This document shows, piece after piece, positions 6,701 through 43,504 of a stretch of DNA of 49,763 nucleotides. The notes beneath the pieces were generated by a model, which made no database searches, was not told where the DNA came from, and saw only the letters and a list, made by a program, of their open reading frames with translations. Origin of the DNA: a virus; the IMG/VR virus record IMGVR_UViG_3300045988_172460. One strand, written 5' to 3'. The translations under genes and the position numbers were made by a program. The stretch's first letter is position 1. Each line of letters begins with the position of its first letter.

Positions 6701-8936
6701 TAACTGCTTTATCAATACCTTGAACTAAAGGACCCAATAAAAAATTATCCTTTGATGATTCCCATAATTCACTAATTTTTTTAGAGATATCGGGCCATTT
6801 TTCTTGCAATTTCTTTCCAAATTTACTTCCAAAAATTGATCCTGCCGTTGTCCCTAATATACCTCCAATCACAGTACCAATTGGACCAAACGTTGTTCCG
6901 GCTACGGCACCTAATTTTGCGCCAGCTAATGTTGCTGCTTTAGCGCCTAATACTCCACCAACGATAGAACCTAACGAATCACCAATTTTTTCAAACTTAT
7001 TATTTTTATTAATTTGAGTTAAAGTTAAACCTGCCGAAATATAAGACAATAAAGGAACCGATTTGGCAAACCTTCTCACTCCGCCAAAAAGTTTAGTACC
7101 TTTTCCTATTTTGCCAACAGATCCAACCGGTAAGGATTCCTGTATATTTGGACTAGCAGTAGTATGCGTTGGTGCGCTAGCTTTTTGAGCTGCAGAATCA
7201 ACATCTTCTAAAGCCTTTCTTGTTTTAAAAGCTTCTCTCTGAGCAGTGTTCCCAAGCTTTTCTAGTTTAGCAATAATACCTAAAATTCCCTTTGAGACTC
7301 CCAAGAGCGGTTTTCCTACTAGCTTAAACCCTAGCAAACCGCCAATACCATACGTGGCCCATTTGCCAACTTGTTTCATAGCGACAGGGTTTTCATCAGT
7401 AAATTCTTTGAGTATACGAATGCTTGGCTTAATAATATATTTAAACCCTTTATCCATTATGTTAAACATATTTTTAGCACCTTCTGCAATGCCAGGTCCT
7501 ATAGCTTTGCCTACCTTTTTAGCTGTAGGAATTATTTCATCAACAAAATAATCTTTTGCCTGTCCAAAGTGTTTCATTACCTGTTTTGCTGTTGGCTCAA
7601 CTTTTGCGCCAACATTTTCTAACATATCTGGTATTTCTTCACCTTTTTTTACAAAATCTGTCGCTTTGATAATTAGTGGCGTGAATATTGGTAACAAACC
7701 TTGCCCTAACTTCGCCGATGTTTCTTTTATTGATTCTGTAAAAACACGGGTGGCATTTGCAGCTTGATCACTTGTTCTTGCAAAATCGCCTTGGGAGTTC
7801 TTAGTTTTAGACATTACGTAGTTATAACGTAAGCGTACTAATTCTTCCTGACTTAGAGAATCTAATTTTGCTTGTTGAACCTCTTCACCTTTAGATTCTG
7901 CTTCTGTTAATTTTAACTGCGCATCTCTAGCTTCAATTGAATTTTCACCATGTTTTTTAATGGCTTTATTTAAACGATCTTGAGCTTTTTCTCTTGCCAT
8001 GGCATTCTTTGCAGCCTTAGAATTATCTACTGACGACTGCAACGCTCCACTGGCCATCGCAAACTGTTCCAAGTTGGTTTGAGTCATAACAATACCCAAA
8101 CCTTTTAACGCCTCAGTTTCACCAGTAAACACACCATTTAATGCTGTATTTACACGGTCAATTCCTATATTTTTAAATGAAGCAAGATCTCCTGCCAAGT
8201 CAACTAATGAAGTAGACATTTTTGCAGCTTCTTCTGTGCCAATACCCATTGAAGTTGACATATCTCCATATGTAGCTGCTAAGTCTAACGCTGTACCTTG
8301 TGCCAAACCAATATTAGTCAGTGTGGACTTCGACCAATCTTCCACAACTTTATTGTTATCACCAAAAGCTACTTCTACTTTGTTTAAAGCTTCATTAGTA
8401 TCAGATGCATAGTCAAAGGCCTTTTTGCCTGCTCCTGCGATTGCTGCACCAGCTATCATTGCACCATTTCTTATCTTTGTAAAAGCATTCCAAGCAACAT
8501 CTGAAGCCTTTGTTGCAACAGTTCCTATATGGCCAATACTTGTTTGTACACCCTTCGCAGCTTTTCCAACTACTTTTAGAGATGTTGCACTAGATTGAGC
8601 GAAAACACTTGCAGAATTTTTACTTTTATCAAACTGATTTCCAACATCTTTTACTTGTTTTTCAGTTTGTTTAGCAGAGTTTGTTGTCTTTTGCATAGAA
8701 TCTTTTGCTCGATTTCCGAACTGGACAACTTTATCTGTATTTTGTTTTAAACCTTCACTATTTCTTTTTAAAGAGGTTGTGGCGCCATCTATGGATTTTG
8801 CTGAATTTTGATAAGTACCTTCCATTCGTGCAGCTTTAGCAAGAATTTTATCAGTTTCTTCATTAGCACGCTCTAACGATCTATTATTTATTTTCCAATC
8901 GAGTTCGATTACTGAACTACGTAACGCATCTGCCAT
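3753..8936 (-). CDS. Tail tape measure protein with C-terminal M23 peptidase and lytic transglycosylase domains
   Basis: 1727 aa, Ala/Gly/Lys-rich with coiled and hydrophobic segments. Follows the chaperone pair. Motifs HTGIDY...GPHVHYEL and QIQRESSGN...GLLQY. Confidence 0.9.
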   Translation of the reverse strand: MADALRSSVIELDWKINNRSLERANEETDKILAKAARMEGTYQNSAKSIDGATTSLKRNSEGLKQNTDKVVQFGNRAKDSMQKTTNSAKQTEKQVKDVGNQFDKSKNSASVFAQSSATSLKVVGKAAKGVQTSIGHIGTVATKASDVAWNAFTKIRNGAMIAGAAIAGAGKKAFDYASDTNEALNKVEVAFGDNNKVVEDWSKSTLTNIGLAQGTALDLAATYGDMSTSMGIGTEEAAKMSTSLVDLAGDLASFKNIGIDRVNTALNGVFTGETEALKGLGIVMTQTNLEQFAMASGALQSSVDNSKAAKNAMAREKAQDRLNKAIKKHGENSIEARDAQLKLTEAESKGEEVQQAKLDSLSQEELVRLRYNYVMSKTKNSQGDFARTSDQAANATRVFTESIKETSAKLGQGLLPIFTPLIIKATDFVKKGEEIPDMLENVGAKVEPTAKQVMKHFGQAKDYFVDEIIPTAKKVGKAIGPGIAEGAKNMFNIMDKGFKYIIKPSIRILKEFTDENPVAMKQVGKWATYGIGGLLGFKLVGKPLLGVSKGILGIIAKLEKLGNTAQREAFKTRKALEDVDSAAQKASAPTHTTASPNIQESLPVGSVGKIGKGTKLFGGVRRFAKSVPLLSYISAGLTLTQINKNNKFEKIGDSLGSIVGGVLGAKAATLAGAKLGAVAGTTFGPIGTVIGGILGTTAGSIFGSKFGKKLQEKWPDISKKISELWESSKDNFLLGPLVQGIDKAVKKSKSGIKEIKASAKDLFEKPFDNTTKSGNGVSKATAKRMNSFMKNYELLVDQDTTGKIEGRVLTNEEVTKRYKALEDMQNQVTKQLNKKKDKSNSNLDKLAGMGILNEKDAQGAKAAADELAKVRTNMFSEKVQDFKKLEKQEYDESITATEYYTNRINEIKEKARLENRELSENDKKEIESLEKTSAAAVRAVEEKHAAANKSIHEDMKNQAVVALSDSAKEQKIIMGNLKNASGEISAQQAADAVAASYKAKEGTIKSANEKYEETKRILDEERYVNGTITQQQYDDALKKAQEQRDGVVKEAEKQHEDVVTQAKKQAEGHLEQVDWETGQTLSKWEVFKKDSKKKFKEIWDGTVEGAKSFGEGFSKTISNTVDGALKIWEDFKTGLARKINAVTSGINVVLKFFGLDEIPPWTPTADSKADVSGYKQGKGGKMHAAGSRGASYSGPSLVGEEGVELAYNKSTSSMRLLGSNGPEVTNITSGERILNHSDTKAVLNGGMGQGTVLPGFHKGKGNGLSDFVDSAKDFGANTVDKLKDFGSNAVDKAKEVGTKAIEKTKDIAETAKDWLSDPIGKVTGLFNKHNTYKKGKNIQGLGHGVMNKLKDTSAEWVKNKLEAFKGFFDSEDGGAFGSGAFAPHFGSPFVRTSDYGKRPGLYGDFHTGIDYAAPTGTPIPAQYPGLVDWVQSSSIGLGEHVGIKVADNLWAMYGHMSRIRAKMGDKVKAGQIVGDVGSSGWSTGPHVHYELRKGGPNGQHVNPDTYGGAAGGVAVGAAGWGPQVRKAAKQMNQQVSDAEVNGILAQIQRESSGNQSIIQSSAVWDVNTASGNPARGLLQYIPQTFNAYKVRGYENILNGFHQLMAFFNNSNWRTDLPYGHSGWGPTGHRLRAYAKGGRPSKGETVLVGENGPELFEADTAGTVHPHEKTKALFNQGSPSVNFSPNITINVGNNSDKSVVGDIKEAVRQALEDEYAKLLNILGTGEVV
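4090..4330 (-). other. SLT-type lytic transglycosylase domain inside the tape measure protein
   Basis: ILAQIQRESSGNQ (catalytic Glu codon near 4289..4287) followed by GNPARGLLQYIPQTF. Confidence 0.7.
4450..4760 (-). other. M23 (LytM-type) peptidase domain inside the tape measure protein
   Basis: HxxxD (HTGIDYAAP, His codon at 4721..4719) and HxH (HVHYEL, 4481..4473) metal-binding motifs. Confidence 0.8.
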
Positions 8937-27167: not shown

Positions 27168-27556
27168 TCTGCGACCTCCAATAATTCTGGGTTTTCATGG
27201 ATGTTCCCAACAATCTCAATATCGTCGGTAGCTTCAAATAAATCCTCAGATATATTTTCCCACTCGTATTTAAATGCACCATTTTCAAAAATTACTTGTC
27301 CGTGCACTTCTTGATGGTCATCCCATCCAATATCACCCTCAAAAATTTCAACGCCGTTCTTGTCTTTCAAGCCTGTTGATTGCATGAGAACATATTTATC
27401 AATCATTCCCCACATGCCATTTTCTAGATTGATAAGAGGCGCTATAAATCCTGTATCATCATCAATAGTCCATTCTACATTTTTATCTTCATCAGGATAA
27501 TACATTATGTTTTCTTTTACTGAATATGCTCTAAACTTTGGAATCATTTTCTTCAC
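27164..27556 (-). CDS. YopX-like protein
   Basis: KFRAY...MQSTGLKDKNGVEIFEGDI...IVGNIHENPELL is the typical YopX-family pattern. Start codon uncertain (GTG at 27556 or ATG at 27547). Confidence 0.7.
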   Translation of the reverse strand: MKKMIPKFRAYSVKENIMYYPDEDKNVEWTIDDDTGFIAPLINLENGMWGMIDKYVLMQSTGLKDKNGVEIFEGDIGWDDHQEVHGQVIFENGAFKYEWENISEDLFEATDDIEIVGNIHENPELLEVAE

Positions 27557-28103
27557 TCGCTTTCAACTCTTGTTTGCTTAAATATTCTTGGAATCTCACT
27601 TTATCTTGCACATTCCAAACGTGGTTACCATAGTTTTTATACTCAGTTCTAGGCATTTTTTTATAAGGGATTTTTTCACGTTGGCAATGTGCGATTAGAG
27701 ACGACATCTTAATGTTTAATTTTGTGCATATTTGGCTGAGGTAGTAATCTTCGTCAATCAAACGTCGGATTTCTGTATCTAGCTCTTTAATCTTCTTGTG
27801 CTTTGTCAGCCCTAATTTTTTAGCCCTAAACTCAACAGCTCCAACTGTACGATTTAACCTATCAGCTATATACTTATTTTTCATAGATAAATAGTGCTTT
27901 TTTAAGAACTCATCCTCTTTTTCAGACCATAGACGGTGCATGTAGCATCTAAAATTATCTTCTTTTCGCATTTTGCACAATTTTTTTCTAATCGCATTGG
28001 TGCTTCTATTTAAGTGCTTAGAAGCTTCAATTAGCTGAGTATCGTTTTCAAAAACAAAATATTCTAAATACACTAGTTCGTCTTCTGTCCATTTTCTATA
28101 CAT
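27531..28103 (-). CDS. SANT/Myb-like repeat DNA-binding protein
   Basis: 190 aa. Two W-x-E-x-E-D/L repeats (WTEDELVYL, WSEKEDEFL) plus basic HTH-like segments. Confidence 0.5.
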   Translation of the reverse strand: MYRKWTEDELVYLEYFVFENDTQLIEASKHLNRSTNAIRKKLCKMRKEDNFRCYMHRLWSEKEDEFLKKHYLSMKNKYIADRLNRTVGAVEFRAKKLGLTKHKKIKELDTEIRRLIDEDYYLSQICTKLNIKMSSLIAHCQREKIPYKKMPRTEYKNYGNHVWNVQDKVRFQEYLSKQELKASEENDSKV

Positions 28104-28115
28104 GAAATCACCACA

Positions 28116-29060
28116 CTAGGAAAGTTGCATCAATGCACCAAGAATCTTTTCATCATCCTTACTCTGTAATTCATCAATGATATGCATATATGTTTCTTGA
28201 GTAGTAGTCACGCTTGAATGTCCTAGACGTTTAGCTATGCTATGAGTTGACACCCCGTCAGCGAGTAAAATACTTGCATGTGTATGTCTAAGTCCGTGCA
28301 TTGTGATGACAGTGATTCCTGATTCTTTGCATTTTCTGATCAGGTGGGAATTGTATGTTGAATTGAAAATTCGTTTATATTTGCCTGTCTTTTCATCTCG
28401 ATTTACAAAAATCAATTCATCTTGAGGTAAATTTTCAATGAGCGGTTTAAACTGACCAACTATTTGCCAATCGATGCTTATCGTTCTAACAGAACTTTTG
28501 TTTTTCGTATCCTGAAAAAACATTGTAGAATTTTTGTAGTTCAATGTTTTATTAATGCTGACGGTATTTCTGGTCCAATCAAAATCAGCTGGTGTTAACG
28601 CAATGGCTTCCGCAAAGCGCATTCCTGTTTTTGCAACCAGTAAAATGAACCAATCCATATTTATCCCTTCGCCAAGTTCTAGTGATCTCAACAGCTTTTG
28701 TAGTTCGCCTTTTTGCAGGAATTTTTTCTTTTTTGGTCTCGGCGGTATTCCTTTGATAATCGCTTTGTAGGTTGGATCACGTTTAATTAGTCCTTCGTGA
28801 TACATATCTCTTACACAGCTGCCAATTTGGTGATGAAAATCCATTGTTGTCTGCCGCTCATGTGTCAGAGCGTATTCATTAAGGATGCTTTGATAAGCCT
28901 TTCTATCTAATTTATCTATCGTTAAATCAGGGCAAATTTCAGTAAGGTGTTTGTGGGCTATATAATATTTACTAACTGAGATATCTCTAATTGCACCGAC
29001 TTTGTAAGTTTCAATCCATTCTAAAAAATAGCCAGCAAAAAGTCTGGGACGTTTGCTCAT
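28116..29060 (-). CDS. Second tyrosine recombinase (XerC/D / phage-integrase family) within the early region
   Basis: 314 aa. Catalytic residues R (TGMRFAEA), HxxR (HGLRHTHAS), H..Y (LGHSSVTTTQETYMH). ATGA overlap with the upstream gene. Confidence 0.85.
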   Translation of the reverse strand: MSKRPRLFAGYFLEWIETYKVGAIRDISVSKYYIAHKHLTEICPDLTIDKLDRKAYQSILNEYALTHERQTTMDFHHQIGSCVRDMYHEGLIKRDPTYKAIIKGIPPRPKKKKFLQKGELQKLLRSLELGEGINMDWFILLVAKTGMRFAEAIALTPADFDWTRNTVSINKTLNYKNSTMFFQDTKNKSSVRTISIDWQIVGQFKPLIENLPQDELIFVNRDEKTGKYKRIFNSTYNSHLIRKCKESGITVITMHGLRHTHASILLADGVSTHSIAKRLGHSSVTTTQETYMHIIDELQSKDDEKILGALMQLS

Positions 29061-29749
29061 TCGTTTTCTCCTCCTAACACGCTGGGACTTTCGATGTGAT
29101 CAATAGCTTCTTCCAGCCATTCTCTGACTTGAAACTCTCTTGTGACCACATCGCTGTGCGGCATAACATTTACATCGCTAAAAGCCAACGAATCATCTTT
29201 TGAATTTTGTAAAAAGTAAATCTGTTTTATTTTTCTGTCTAGCGAATCACCGTGGACTACGGTGGCATTCATCCCACGAATAGCAAGATTGAACAGCAGG
29301 AACGGAATGGTTCTATCAGATAACTCCTCTAAATCGTAAAAAGTCATTGATGGTTTATATTCAAAAAAACCAATAGATAGTCTGTCTGCTCGCCATTTTT
29401 GTATGATCATTCCACCTGTCCCAGAAGCTACTTCATGTGTCAACCCACTTCCAGGCCCTACGATTTTTGCAATCACTTCCCCAATTGAATTTGGCGTAAA
29501 ATCTTGCTTCTTAACTTTCCGATCAGCATGTTCGTCTTGAAAATATTCGTGAAACCAATCGAAAGTTAAATCTTTTTCTATTTCTAAAAATTTGTTAAAC
29601 ACGATTTCTCGTTTATCGCGACTTAGTAATATATTCATGAGCGCTTCTGGCGCTTTGTAGGCATCATCAACACCTAGCAATTCATTTATTTTTTCTGTTG
29701 TTAGTTTCATCGTTTTTAAAGGAGCAAAAAGCTTTTTATGCGGCCGCAA
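29057..29749 (-). CDS. N6-adenine-methyltransferase-like protein, short and lacking a canonical NPPF/Y catalytic motif
   Basis: DFTPNSIGEVIAKIV and EVASGTGGM (SAM motif I), NLAIRGMNATVVHGDSL. At the expected motif IV position only FSDVNVMPHSD is found. Start is TTG at 29749 (with AAGGAG SD) or ATG at 29710. Confidence 0.6.
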   Translation of the reverse strand: MRPHKKLFAPLKTMKLTTEKINELLGVDDAYKAPEALMNILLSRDKREIVFNKFLEIEKDLTFDWFHEYFQDEHADRKVKKQDFTPNSIGEVIAKIVGPGSGLTHEVASGTGGMIIQKWRADRLSIGFFEYKPSMTFYDLEELSDRTIPFLLFNLAIRGMNATVVHGDSLDRKIKQIYFLQNSKDDSLAFSDVNVMPHSDVVTREFQVREWLEEAIDHIESPSVLGGENE

Positions 29750-29761
29750 ACTCCACTCCTT
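29718..29761 (-). repeat. Composite palindromic leader element, copy A (5' of the N6-MTase-like gene)
   Basis: Plus strand: AAAGGAG - cAAAAAGCTTTTTat - GCGGCCGC - AAACTCCACTCCTT. Shares its architecture and a 22-nt block (20/22) with copy B. Confidence 0.8.
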
Positions 29762-29766
29762 TCTAT

Positions 29767-30507
29767 TTATTTTTTCTCTAGAACCTTTTTAAATATGTCA
29801 TCCACTAATTTTTCTGGAATATTTGATCGTTCATTATAGCTTTTGGAAAAATTCCCCCAAGCAATTTCTTGTTTAATAACTTTATTTTTCAATCCCAAAT
29901 GGATATTACTAGCAAATTTCGTGGGCTTCTGTAATGGATAATCATAATTGTTATACCTGGTTAAATTTTTAAATGGCAGTTTAAAATTCAAGACATCTTC
30001 GATATATTCCCAAATTTTGCCACTAGCGGGGTTCTCAATGATGAAATATTTTGGTTGGTACTTTTTTATAATTTTTATAGTATTAAAAACCGTTAACTCT
30101 CCATTCACTCTTTTTAAAAATTGCCTTTCATAAACATAATTAGTATCTTCGTAATCTATTGTGGTTCTTATAGTAAACGGGCTTGGTAATATCTGTGGTG
30201 CAAATAAATTATCTGTTACATCTTCTCTTTTCCAACAAGCATTACCATTTTTCATTGCACTAGCTACTGACCAGCTTTCACATGGTGGGCTTGCAATGAT
30301 TAAATCTGGCTTTGGTAATTTGTCTAAAACTTTGAATAATTTATTATCATTAAACATATAAGAATAGTCCGCTAAATTCAGATGAATAAAATGGTCATTC
30401 TTATTTTCAATATCCAAACCTATGCTGTATATTTCTATATCTTCAAACTTTTGTGCAGAACGCTTATAACATCCGTTCCCACTATCAAATAGTGCCCATA
30501 CTATCAT
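29767..30507 (-). CDS. Small C5-cytosine-methyltransferase-like protein
   Basis: 246 aa. Motif I-like LFDSGNG, motif IV SPPCESWS (Pro-Cys), motif VI IIENPASG. Very short target-recognition region. Confidence 0.6.
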   Translation of the reverse strand: MIVWALFDSGNGCYKRSAQKFEDIEIYSIGLDIENKNDHFIHLNLADYSYMFNDNKLFKVLDKLPKPDLIIASPPCESWSVASAMKNGNACWKREDVTDNLFAPQILPSPFTIRTTIDYEDTNYVYERQFLKRVNGELTVFNTIKIIKKYQPKYFIIENPASGKIWEYIEDVLNFKLPFKNLTRYNNYDYPLQKPTKFASNIHLGLKNKVIKQEIAWGNFSKSYNERSNIPEKLVDDIFKKVLEKK

Positions 30508-30513
30508 AATTTC

Positions 30514-30558
30514 AAAGGAGTAAAGAATTCTTTACTGTGGCCACAAACTCCACTCCTT
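30514..30558 (-). repeat. Composite palindromic leader element, copy B (5' of the C5-MTase-like gene)
   Basis: Plus strand: AAAGGAG - TAAAGAATTCTTTAC t - GTGGCCAC - AAACTCCACTCCTT. The 16-nt perfect palindrome is at 30520..30535. Confidence 0.8.
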
Positions 30559-30565
30559 CCGCTTT

Positions 30566-41996: not shown

Positions 41997-42278
41997 ATGA
42001 TGACACCATATGAATTGAGAGAAAGATTGAAAAGAGATGTTCCAGAAGTAACAATTTATCCAATATTAACAAACCCATATTATAGTGAAGAAGAATATCA
42101 AGATGTGCTGAAGGATCAATTAAAACCAAAAAAAGACATTGAAACTGATAATATGGTCACACTCCCCTTATTTTCATGGAAAGAAAAAGAATTAAAAATG
42201 GATAAGTTCTATGAAAAAGGCTGGTATAAACCTAAACTTTATACCCTTCCAAAATCTATGTTCAGGAGTGAAGATTAA
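41997..42278 (+). CDS. Hypothetical protein, translationally coupled to the integrase
   Basis: ATG at 41997 after GAAAGGA. 93 aa. TAATG overlap with the int start. Confidence 0.55.
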   Translation: MMTPYELRERLKRDVPEVTIYPILTNPYYSEEEYQDVLKDQLKPKKDIETDNMVTLPLFSWKEKELKMDKFYEKGWYKPKLYTLPKSMFRSED

Positions 42279-43504
42279 TGGCTTCTATAAAATCTTATAA
42301 ATTGAAAAATGGTCAAGAACGTTGGGAATACTTCGTTTCAAATGGACGTAGCAATGGTACTGGCAGGCAACAAAAAATACACAAGAGAGGTTTTAGAAGT
42401 CATAAGGAAGCTTTGAAAGCTGCAAAAATAATTGAAGGGCAAATTGCATCTGAAGAATTCGTTAAAGAAAATCCACAAAAAATGACTATTTCAAAATTTA
42501 TGAATATTTGGATAAACGAATACAAAAATAACGTTAAGGAAGGATCACGAATTGTCTATCGAGATGCTATCCGTATGTATATTGATCCCTATATAGGTAA
42601 TTATCAATTAAATAAATATAAACCTGCGGATCACCAAAAGTTTATTAATAGCTTGTTTACGAATAAAGAACTAGGAAAAAGTAAAAATGGGCTTAGTTAC
42701 AATACAGTAAAAATTGTAAATGCAGCTCTTTCCAATGCATTCAAAAAGGCGCAAAAATTAGGGTATATAAAAAGCAATCCTACCTACTTCGTTGAATTTC
42801 CTTTAGATAAGGTTAAGGAAAAAACAAATAAAGAAAAGAAACTAGAATTCTACACTTTAGAGCAGGAAAATCTATTTCTTGACACTGCTAGAAATTTTGA
42901 CGATTTTATGTGGTATGTATTTTTTTTAATCATTTTCGACTTAGGCTTGCGGAAAGGCGAAGTAATGGCCTTACGATGGTTTAACTTTGATTTTAGAGAT
43001 AATATTCTCACATTTGACAAGCAGCGTTTGTATAGAAAAGAGCAACCTGGTCAAGTAATTTTAGATGATGTTAAAACTGATGCTGGGAAGAGAAGTTTAA
43101 AAATGACAAACAGAGTGAGAAACTCCGTCTTAGAACTCTATAGTATTAATTATGATCTTACAAGTAATGTATTACCCATGACTAACTCAAACCAAGATTT
43201 TTTATTTATCAATCATAGAGGAAAAAACGTTGGCTTGCCTATTCGTCAACGATCCGTTGACACAGCTTGGCACCGTATCATTCAAAAAGCAAACTTACCA
43301 AAAATCAGAATTCATGACGGTCGCCATACTAATGCTGCTCGTTTACGACAAGCAGGAGTTCCACTTGAGGACATTAAAGACATGCTTGGTCATAAGAATG
43401 TTAAAACGACTGAGATATATGCACATGTCTCTCCTGAAGTGAAAGAACGAGCTGTAAATAAACTTGAATTATATCAAATGCAACACAAAAAATCAGGTAA
43501 CTAA
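42278..43504 (+). CDS. int: Tyrosine integrase
   Basis: 408 aa. R (LRKGEVMALRW), HxxR (IHDGRHTNAARL), H..Y (LGHKNVKTTEIYAHV). Followed by attP-like repeats. Confidence 0.9.
   Translation: MASIKSYKLKNGQERWEYFVSNGRSNGTGRQQKIHKRGFRSHKEALKAAKIIEGQIASEEFVKENPQKMTISKFMNIWINEYKNNVKEGSRIVYRDAIRMYIDPYIGNYQLNKYKPADHQKFINSLFTNKELGKSKNGLSYNTVKIVNAALSNAFKKAQKLGYIKSNPTYFVEFPLDKVKEKTNKEKKLEFYTLEQENLFLDTARNFDDFMWYVFFLIIFDLGLRKGEVMALRWFNFDFRDNILTFDKQRLYRKEQPGQVILDDVKTDAGKRSLKMTNRVRNSVLELYSINYDLTSNVLPMTNSNQDFLFINHRGKNVGLPIRQRSVDTAWHRIIQKANLPKIRIHDGRHTNAARLRQAGVPLEDIKDMLGHKNVKTTEIYAHVSPEVKERAVNKLELYQMQHKKSGN

Follow-up and report, generated by a model that had tools for sequence, protein, structure and literature searches.

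The stretch of DNA analyzed here (IMG/VR virus record IMGVR_UViG_3300045988_172460; 49,763 nucleotides, hereafter the window) is an Enterococcus faecalis-type prophage, and its near-identical DNA matches all come from Enterococcus phages. Nearly every gene of the window is carried on the minus strand, and a lysogeny module reading in the opposite direction lies at 39.6 to 43.5 kb. We were concerned with a gene cluster in which a second tyrosine recombinase stands next to methyltransferase (MTase)-like genes. A preliminary description of this DNA had placed three open reading frames (ORFs) in the cluster, and all three are present on the minus strand at the coordinates it gave; with the gene that follows them, they are listed here in the order in which they are read.

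29767..30507, minus strand: mini C5-cytosine-MTase-like gene (246 aa; PF00145, phrog_2882)
29057..29749, minus strand: half-HsdM gene (N6s; 230 aa from TTG 29749, or 217 aa from ATG 29710)
28116..29060, minus strand: tyrosine recombinase gene, EfiA (clade 4) hsdS-invertase family (314 aa; PF00589, phrog_1)
27531..28103, minus strand: Myb/SANT-like protein gene (190 aa; phrog_323)

The ATG of the recombinase overlaps the TGA of the half-HsdM gene as ATGA (GAATGAGC), just as had been described; the AGGAGG Shine-Dalgarno (SD) sequence for the recombinase sits within the upstream half-HsdM gene, and the Myb-like gene starts 12 nt past the recombinase stop. No promoter or terminator splitting the cluster was found above chance, and the genes from 29749 to 27531, encoding the half-HsdM, the recombinase, and the Myb-like protein, probably form one early operon. 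The recombinase gene is in the middle of this operon, in a replication and recombination region, and is flanked by MTase-like and YopX genes. The conserved unit is the half-HsdM, recombinase, and Myb-like genes, and it reaches to the left beyond the edge drawn in the preliminary description. That description had a recombinase coupled to a pair of methyltransferases: the coupling to the HsdM-like gene stands, but the pair does not, as the C5-like gene is an exchangeable neighbor.

The recombinase had also been described as distinct from the integrase of the lysogeny module, and this is correct, as a separate arm-binding enzyme is encoded there.

42278..43504, plus strand: lysogeny integrase gene (408 aa; PF14657, PF14659, PF00589)

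This integrase has arm-binding (PF14657), SAM-like (PF14659), and catalytic (PF00589) domains, and its neighbors are an XRE-type helix-turn-helix (HTH; repressor-like) gene and an IrrE/ImmA-like peptidase gene. The recombinase of the cluster consists of core-binding and catalytic domains; it matches PF00589 (E value of 9.6e-25, 87.8 bits against a cut-off of 27.1), together with a weak SAM-like N-domain, and phrog_1 (integrase; 2.5e-56). It shares superfamily and catalytic fold with lambda Int-type heterobivalent integrases such as the prophage's own but differs from them in having no arm-binding domain and in lying away from the repressor, immunity region, and attP, and identity as a heterobivalent lysogeny integrase was rejected on these grounds. 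In an alignment with 31 relatives that are 54 to 63% identical to it, R148, K186, R258, H281, and Y291 are invariant and H255 nearly so, and K186 is likely the beta-hairpin lysine. The catalytic set previously read as complete (R, HxxR, and H..Y) is thus conserved as R148, H255-x-x-R258, H281, and Y291; judged by these residues, the enzyme is catalytically intact and its chemistry has probably been retained.

Protein searches returned thousands of relatives of the recombinase, with a dense shell at 55 to 64% identity, and a genome scan that sampled one genome per species found relatives at 582 loci in 582 species. Approximately 70 of the best 80 genomic relatives are located among the hsdS, hsdM, and hsdR genes of restriction-modification (R-M) systems, a context that was confirmed with Pfam for the loci of Listeria grayi, Histophilus somni, Lachnospira, and Dubosiella. 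EfiA, a clade-4 tyrosine invertase, is encoded in the Efa4125I/EfaH25I Type I R-M "epigenetic inverton" of E. faecalis; the genes there are ordered hsdR-hsdM-hsdSA-efiA-hsdSB, with an efiA of 930 bp, an hsdM of 1593 bp, and repeats of 15 to 60 bp, according to the study in which EfiA was characterized and the invertase clades were defined (PMC7672463). We found this locus in metagenome contigs through an exact 30-bp IR2 match, and the gene sizes agree with the published ones. The recovered loci have two inverted IR2 copies about 2.3 kb apart around a 309-aa recombinase gene; on one flank is a 398-aa hsdS preceded by a 530-aa hsdM, and on the other is an inverted 383-aa hsdS. The window recombinase is 59% identical to EfiA over 313 aa, that is, over its full length, with a BLAST E value of 4e-136 against the E ≤ 1e-100 used by Huang et al. 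for membership (PMC7672463). The two enzymes are also alike in size, in the two-domain build without an arm-binding domain, in catalytic residues, and in host species. On this sequence evidence, the recombinase can be assigned firmly to the EfiA (clade-4) invertase family, and we make the assignment of family and module together with high confidence. The likeness to recombinase-controlled, phase-variable R-M that had been noted earlier therefore holds as ancestry, given the identity to EfiA and the R-M loci of most close relatives; it does not hold as a switch inside the phage, which is taken up below.

In a maximum-likelihood tree rooted on lysogeny integrases of 365 to 400 aa, the phage-type and R-M-type enzymes form one ingroup (Shimodaira-Hasegawa-like approximate likelihood ratio test [SH-aLRT] value of 99). 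The window recombinase falls in a phage-only clade of 10 (SH-aLRT of 97, and 87 in a second run), and EfiA clusters with R-M-type enzymes of Vagococcus, Listeria, and Enterococcus. The phage-type lineages diverge first, with the R-M-type enzymes nested inside (SH-aLRT of 85 to 90); this order bears on the origin of the inverton recombinases, and at such moderate support it is a lead and not a result.

Clustering with XerC/D-like enzymes, the outcome that the preliminary description had set against its own proposal, was not found. The recombinase has weak partial matches to Xer, XerA, and IntI models, but at 42 to 72 bits against cut-offs of 220 to 335 (XerA, 71.8 against 220; XerD, 44.1 against 329.6; XerC, 41.6 against 335), and XerS gave 40.6 against 267. 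IntI identity was likewise rejected, with scores of 48.8 against 265 and 38.5 against 435 (TIGR02249 and NF011946, respectively) from the C-terminal 75 aa only, and the recombinase also scored far below the curated cut-offs of invertase family models. Its nearest relatives are hsdS invertases and phage integrases, the N6-like protein beside it has no catalytic half, and its linkage to HsdM-like genes is non-random (see below); an ordinary XerC/D-like dimer resolvase beside plain orphan anti-restriction methyltransferases is therefore extremely unlikely.

The partner gene upstream had been called a degenerate N6-MTase-like gene, and our analysis agrees: its product is HsdM-like and the catalytic NPPY/F half is not there. 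The match to PF02384 covers residues 66 to 175 only, at profile positions 9 to 120 of 311 (29.1 bits against a cut-off of 20.4); matches to phrog_1071 (8e-100) and to the Type I MTase model of PADLOC (9e-11) were also obtained, and the sequence matches in PDB are all to Type I-type (HsdM-like) methylase subunits. The S-adenosylmethionine-binding motifs X (QDFTP) and I (ASGTGG) are conserved, no motif IV of the form [NDS]PP[YFW] was found, and motifs V to VIII and the C-terminal tail are not present. The protein terminates in the family motif VNVMPHS, where full-length relatives continue to NPPY/F. Its start is probably ATG 29710 (M14), since the PHROG profile and all relatives begin there (MKLTTEKIN) and TTG 29749 is inside a repeated leader that is described below. 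In an AlphaFold2 model (predicted local distance difference test [pLDDT] of 87.5, predicted template modeling score of 0.87), whose closest fold matches are of the HsdM type, five N-terminal helices are joined to no more than the first strands of a gamma-class N6-adenine MTase Rossmann fold.

Full-length, NPPY/F-bearing relatives of 386 to 438 aa are encoded by the phage 1_EfsPF36 and at loci L118 to L121, L029, and L137, and the first 167 aa of the 438-aa NPPY-bearing MTase of 1_EfsPF36 share 49% identity with the half-HsdM. The short form is a conserved family with a confident AlphaFold2 model, and the half-HsdM therefore does not appear to be a recent pseudogene; to judge from the missing motifs, it cannot be a methyltransferase by itself. 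The short HsdM-like gene was found in 212 phage records, mostly without a recombinase, so the dependence runs from the recombinase to the HsdM-like gene, as it does in R-M loci. This family, phrog_1071, is large, unstudied, and confidently folded. Two other ideas about its origin were tried and dropped. The half-HsdM has no significant pairwise similarity to the HsdM of the host inverton, as would be expected of a recent copy or decoy of it, and a home in conjugative-plasmid leading regions was not borne out for close relatives: tblastn found 21 plasmid records, of which 19 are non-mobilizable and several phage-sized. We also observed that the Staphylococcus phages PP468606, MG543995, and OR844996 have ORFs matching only the C-terminal half of the MTase (residues ~170 to 390, from NPPY onward); by sequence, N-halves and C-halves of the phage HsdM-like MTase family thus seem to be encoded separately, each by different phages.

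The third product of the cluster matches phrog_323, which is labeled "transcriptional regulator, D5-like." Its AlphaFold2 model (pLDDT of 85) contains three HTH domains, each tri-helical, with a C-terminal helix of 38 residues (152 to 189); in a fold search, nothing matched the whole chain significantly, and there was weak similarity only to tandem HTH/homeodomain and transposase DNA-binding domains. Thirteen homologues match Sigma70_r4, Homeodomain-like, and Myb and, in some, an excisionase-type HTH_17. A Pfam match to "Anthrax-tox_M," which at 18.8 bits falls short of the cut-off of 25, coincides with the HTH repeats and is most likely noise. The Myb-like gene adjoins the recombinase gene in Listeria, Lacticaseibacillus, Amphibacillus, and Enterococcus phages, and two independent Myb::recombinase fusions were found, one of 378 aa (P0107) and one of 604 aa (L153:559-2373). 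The Myb-like protein is likely a DNA-binding accessory of the recombinase; where lambda Int has an arm-binding domain, accessory DNA binding may here be provided by a separate multi-HTH protein, which in some cases is fused to the recombinase.

We surveyed related phages for this block, as had been suggested, and found that the half-HsdM, recombinase, and Myb-like genes are kept and the C5-like gene is variable. Six phage-type loci are alike, namely those of Listeria phages B025 and B054, Lacticaseibacillus phage R9.1, and prophages of Pisciglobus, Amphibacillus, and a Lactococcus metagenome-assembled genome; all have a short HsdM-like and/or Myb-like gene beside the recombinase, and none has hsdS or hsdR. 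Listeria phage B025 (gp42-gp43-gp44), Listeria phage B054 (gp64-gp65), and R9.1 carry the orthologous arrangement of half-HsdM (where present), recombinase, and "D5-like regulator," with recombinases 49 to 59% identical to that of the window, and the annotations of these genes go no further than methyltransferase, site-specific integrase, and regulator. B054 differs from the window in having no half-HsdM, and R9.1 resembles it in that a truncated C5 MTase gene precedes the module. Approximately 40 further diverse loci came from a profile scan of viral contigs, and their neighboring genes were labeled with iterated hidden Markov models. We counted the 26 non-redundant loci that are neither R-M-embedded nor of the lysogeny type and that have at least 1.5 kb of sequence on each side: 19 have a same-strand HsdM-like gene at most 1.5 kb upstream or downstream of the recombinase, in most cases overlapping it or within about 20 nt, and 9 have a Myb-like gene. 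The HsdM-like partner may be short or full length, and gene order is permuted in L125, L129, L133, L134, L136, L153 to L158, and L220: the order is recombinase-Myb-HsdM in L029 and L125, Myb-HsdM-recombinase in L133, recombinase-HsdM in L134, L136, L154, L155, and L158, and Myb-recombinase-x-HsdM in L220. The linkage between recombinase and HsdM-like gene is non-random, and the HsdM-like partner looks obligate.

In five phage backgrounds (L005, L007, L017, L111, and L113), a 2.25-kb block from 29775 to 27527 is the sole similarity to the window. These backgrounds are unrelated, their upstream similarity boundary is at 29766 to 29775, and the ends of the block are sharp and fall at gene boundaries (the leader and a stop codon). 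A copy of the trio was also found on a 68-kb Listeria plasmid record. These observations are what would be expected if the trio were a selfish or semi-autonomous cassette spread by its own recombinase with scant benefit to the phage. Ends at gene boundaries are, however, those of ordinary phage mosaicism; the block ends have neither direct nor inverted repeats around them and no duplications resembling att sites, the upstream boundary element exists without the cassette too, and the breakpoints vary (29474, 29775, 30560, and 30589). A selfish cassette is therefore improbable, and the movement of the block looks like ordinary module exchange of a jointly functioning unit. The earlier suggestion of a captured mobile cassette is right in that the block occurs alone in unrelated Enterococcus phages but fails for want of att-like ends or flanking repeats.

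The C5-like gene is a variable neighbor outside the conserved trio; in relatives it is kept, missing, or replaced by another MTase. It matches PF00145 over residues 50 to 86 and profile positions 45 to 81 of 324 only (6.1e-09, 36.2 bits against a cut-off of 22), phrog_2882 (6e-128), and, weakly, the Type II and orphan MTase models of PADLOC, and it scores 28.5 against 100.65 with TIGR00675. Motifs I-like (LFDSGNG), IV (SPPCE), VI (IIENP), and X-like (SNIP) can be recognized; at 246 aa, the protein is too small for a target-recognition domain (TRD), and a PDB sequence search found no relative. The truncated C5 MTase of phage R9.1 (L002:2454-4014) lies directly before the half-HsdM gene and overlaps it, and its truncation was confirmed with Pfam (PF00145 positions 1 to 219 of 324, without TRD or motifs IX and X). 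In phage Lc-Nu (L189:1738-3223, ORF40/41), the 261-aa ORF40 upstream of the half-HsdM is a DNA methyltransferase by annotation only. By analogy, it is conceivable that a C5-like protein and a half-HsdM could pair as a two-part hybrid enzyme. Both MTase-like genes of the window are preceded by a copy of the same leader.

30505..30558, minus strand: leader before the C5-like gene (54 nt)
29708..29761, minus strand: second leader copy, before the half-HsdM gene (54 nt)

In the first copy, the order is AAGGAGTGGAG-TTTG, a 10-bp palindrome (TGTGGCCACA), a 16-bp palindrome (GTAAAGAATTCTTTAC), CTCCTTT, and ATG, and AAGGAGTGGAG is SD-like. The palindromes of the second copy are TGCGGCCGCA and AAAAAGCTTTTT; they differ from those of the first in a compensatory way, staying palindromic. 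In relatives, the 10-bp perfect palindrome is TGGTCGACCA. The second palindrome, also perfect, measures 12 to 16 bp across the copies of the leader. Of the 53 occurrences of the leader among the loci that we fetched, 51 are in front of MTase-type genes, and the leader also marks boundaries between mosaic segments. It was found only in Enterococcus phage loci, including those of the recombinase-free phages EFC-1 and 1_EfsPF36, and it is therefore not the general site of the recombinase. For the same reasons, and since it stands before MTase-type genes generally, we rejected an integron-like reading of the two copies flanking the C5-like gene. The leader might serve a dimeric regulator as its operator, or it could be a control region that responds to methylation.

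The kinship of the recombinase with hsdS invertases raises the question of whether anything is inverted inside this phage, as the preliminary description had suggested in likening the cluster to phase-variable R-M or an epigenetic switch. No HsdS-like ORF was found in the whole window (best E value of 0.13 with all filters off), nor were an hsdR, a full hsdM, a silent HsdM C-terminal cassette, or a half-HsdS. The EfiA repeats and their shared core, GYGTAAGTTRG, are not in the window (0 matches to the core against 2.3 expected by chance). In and around the module, there are no inverted repeats of at least 25 nt and none above chance, and the only direct repeat is the twofold 54-nt leader. The context that defines the EfiA family, a Type I R-M locus with at least two hsdS genes, is thus not that of the window, nor are there inverted repeats bounding invertible segments. 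Approximately 35 near-identical copies in public assemblies run collinear with the window and show no inversion, which is weak negative evidence only. Elsewhere, inverted repeats of 32 to 44 nt do lie around segments of 154 to 173 nt beside the module, at L118 to L121 and L029, and would suit such a switch; however, the four L118-type copies share one orientation, and neither MTase-like gene of the window looks capable of methylation alone. We consider a switch operating inside this phage to be hardly credible.

The recombinase could also act in cis on the phage genome in another way, by resolving dimers or concatemers or by secondary integration and excision, with the Myb-like protein as its accessory and the HsdM-like protein incidental or regulatory. 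Consistent with this, the recombinase is closest outside its family (33 to 39% identity) to short lysogeny integrases from phages of Lactococcus, Listeria, and Bacillus, the closest solved relatives are prophage and transposon integrases, some Myb-like homologues have the excisionase-type HTH_17, and the gene lies among those for replication and recombination. However, we found no candidate site: near the module there are no repeats or palindromes except the Enterococcus phage leader, which also occurs without the recombinase. The prophage already encodes a lysogeny integrase, and it also encodes a RecU resolvase; moreover, action in cis leaves unexplained why the HsdM-like gene persists through permutations of gene order. 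We therefore regard this explanation as unlikely.

Sister phages offer some links between the module and Type I systems of the host. In four Enterococcus phages (L118 to L121), the recombinase is 64% identical to that of the window, the partner is a full-length MTase, and no HsdS is encoded. Compared with the HsdM of the host inverton, this MTase is 32% identical over residues 69 to 170 and 57% identical over residues 171 to 411, and its last 42 aa are 64% identical, the ATKEVFG tail included. In Type I structures, the C-terminal region of HsdM packs against HsdS. In these phages, which have no HsdS of their own, the MTase might dock on the HsdS of the host. Immediately after the Myb gene, the same four phages have a 173-nt segment flanked by 44-nt inverted repeats (L118:3292-3552; L119 to L121, ~7446 to 7706), which contains on its opposite strand a degenerate remnant (KVEAELSYLLAVPVVREET) with approximately 80% DNA identity to the 3' end of the E. 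faecalis inverton hsdM; the element has a single orientation in all four copies.

Several further observations were made on these loci. The full-length MTase at L119:4746-5981 looks chimeric in comparison with the host HsdM at L202:5049-6641. In L118, a difference of one base in an A-run (AAAAAAACTTG versus AAAAAGAACTTG) shortens the MTase to 386 aa, and those of L119 to L121 continue to 411 aa; the difference (L118, 1700 to 1760, versus L119, 5880 to 5981) is either a real frameshift or an assembly error. In the Amphibacillus prophage (L029:11488-11705), a 32-nt inverted repeat (91% complementary) surrounds 154 nt between the Myb-like gene and the full-length HsdM-like gene; this segment resembles an invertible promoter in size and position and was seen in a single copy. 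Pisciglobus has a phage-type module and a chromosomal hsdS-rec-hsdS inverton together, and clade-4 invertons are carried by E. faecalis, Listeria, and Pisciglobus hosts. Two records with recombinase matches, OR846613.1 (22500 to 31500; L211) and OR846726.1 (2500 to 11500; L210), carry complete hsdR-hsdM-hsdS-recombinase-hsdS' invertons and no phage module; they are labeled "UNVERIFIED_ORG ... phage," and the contigs look chromosomal, with invertons of the E. faecalis and Listeria types.

The phage 1_EfsPF36 (L109, CP124927; 2466 to 5016) carries a C5-like gene, the 438-aa NPPY-bearing HsdM-like MTase, whose tail is divergent, and a 146-aa single-TRD half-HsdS of its own. It resembles the window in genomic slot, leader, and upstream C5-like gene and differs in having the NPPY half and its own specificity subunit with no recombinase or Myb-like gene, the window having the opposite set; its MTase and half-HsdS are a phage orphan Type I-like methyltransferase. 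In Enterococcus phages, then, the slot after the MTase alternates between a half-HsdS (1_EfsPF36) and the recombinase with the Myb-like gene (L118 to L121), which would fit a recombinase that no longer recombines and serves, for example, as a DNA-binding subunit in place of HsdS for the phage HsdM-like protein, or as a regulator. The catalytic residues have nevertheless been kept over the 31 aligned sequences, and most partners are half-MTases unable to methylate, so we find a non-recombining role very improbable.

Among described systems, the closest remains EfiA, and the differences from it are those of setting: efiA is placed between a pair of inverted hsdS genes, with hsdM and hsdR alongside, and its product inverts segments delimited by repeats of 15 to 60 bp, whereas the window gene shares an early operon of the phage with half-HsdM and Myb-like genes, falls in a phage-only clade, and has no hsdS or repeats near it. 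The pneumococcal enzymes PsrA/CreX (clade 1) and TvrR (clade 2) are alike in principle, being tyrosine recombinases that are encoded at the locus and rearrange Type I specificity genes; unlike the window recombinase, PsrA/CreX and TvrR are chromosomal and not phage-borne. The PsrA/CreX and TvrR clades have marginal sequence similarity to clade 4, and the survey of Huang et al. in 2020 retained only invertase homologues inside R-M loci (PMC7672463). In the literature that we searched, there was no described phage-borne homologue, function, or functional study of the module. Its parts are of known kinds; the arrangement of a phage-borne invertase with a half-HsdM and a Myb-like protein, lacking both S and R genes, is undescribed in those papers.

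We propose that the module is a phage-borne sister of the HsdM and invertase pair of phase-variable Type I R-M epigenetic invertons and that it would be an active recombination unit aimed outside the prophage, most plausibly at host Type I invertons; the statement as a whole is tentative, and we give it somewhat less than an even chance. The half-HsdM, recombinase, and Myb-like protein would act jointly: the recombinase would perform the chemistry, the Myb-like protein would add DNA binding in the manner of an arm-binding domain or an Xis-like factor, and the half-HsdM would be a stoichiometric partner or regulator. The substrate would lie outside the prophage, the leading candidate being the hsdS repeats of a host inverton or of a co-resident element. 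By rearranging this set of hsdS repeats during lytic growth, the phage might blunt a defense that relies on a population of mixed specificity. This trans-acting counter-defense step is doubtful, and more doubtful still is its most specific form, in which the host hsdS array would be hyper-switched, locked, or broken by a phage EfiA-type invertase that has a half-HsdM partner and a triple-HTH targeting protein as its helpers.

Several points weigh against action on host invertons. The phage clade is old and stands apart from EfiA, so site specificity may have diverged, and the Myb-like partner is missing from R-M-type loci, which suggests a more elaborate and perhaps different site. No recombination product was seen in the assembled sequences, and the co-occurrence with host invertons rests on a handful of genomes. 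Flipping a gene leaves the pre-made R-M enzyme in place, and the benefit would come only to progeny or to the population. Finally, the half-HsdM has no significant pairwise similarity to host HsdM, and it is missing both the catalytic half and the C-terminal tail, the part that resembles the host protein in the full-length MTases of sister phages; a decoy or HsdS-hijacking role is therefore unsupported in this phage.

Among host-associated Bacillota, phase-variable Type I R-M systems are widespread; they are thought to protect populations through differing specificity states, and to our knowledge no phage answer to this mixed-specificity strategy has been described. A phage module built of inverton parts, with no specificity genes and with a dedicated DNA-binding partner, is an obvious candidate for such a counter to phase-variable R-M, and the hypothesis is directly testable in laboratory strains of E. 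faecalis and Listeria. If it is true, progeny DNA would carry the modifications of several specificities, or restriction would be put out of action, and the "herd immunity" of a mixed-specificity population would be defeated; it would be the first counter-defense to work through site-specific recombination of a host defense locus.

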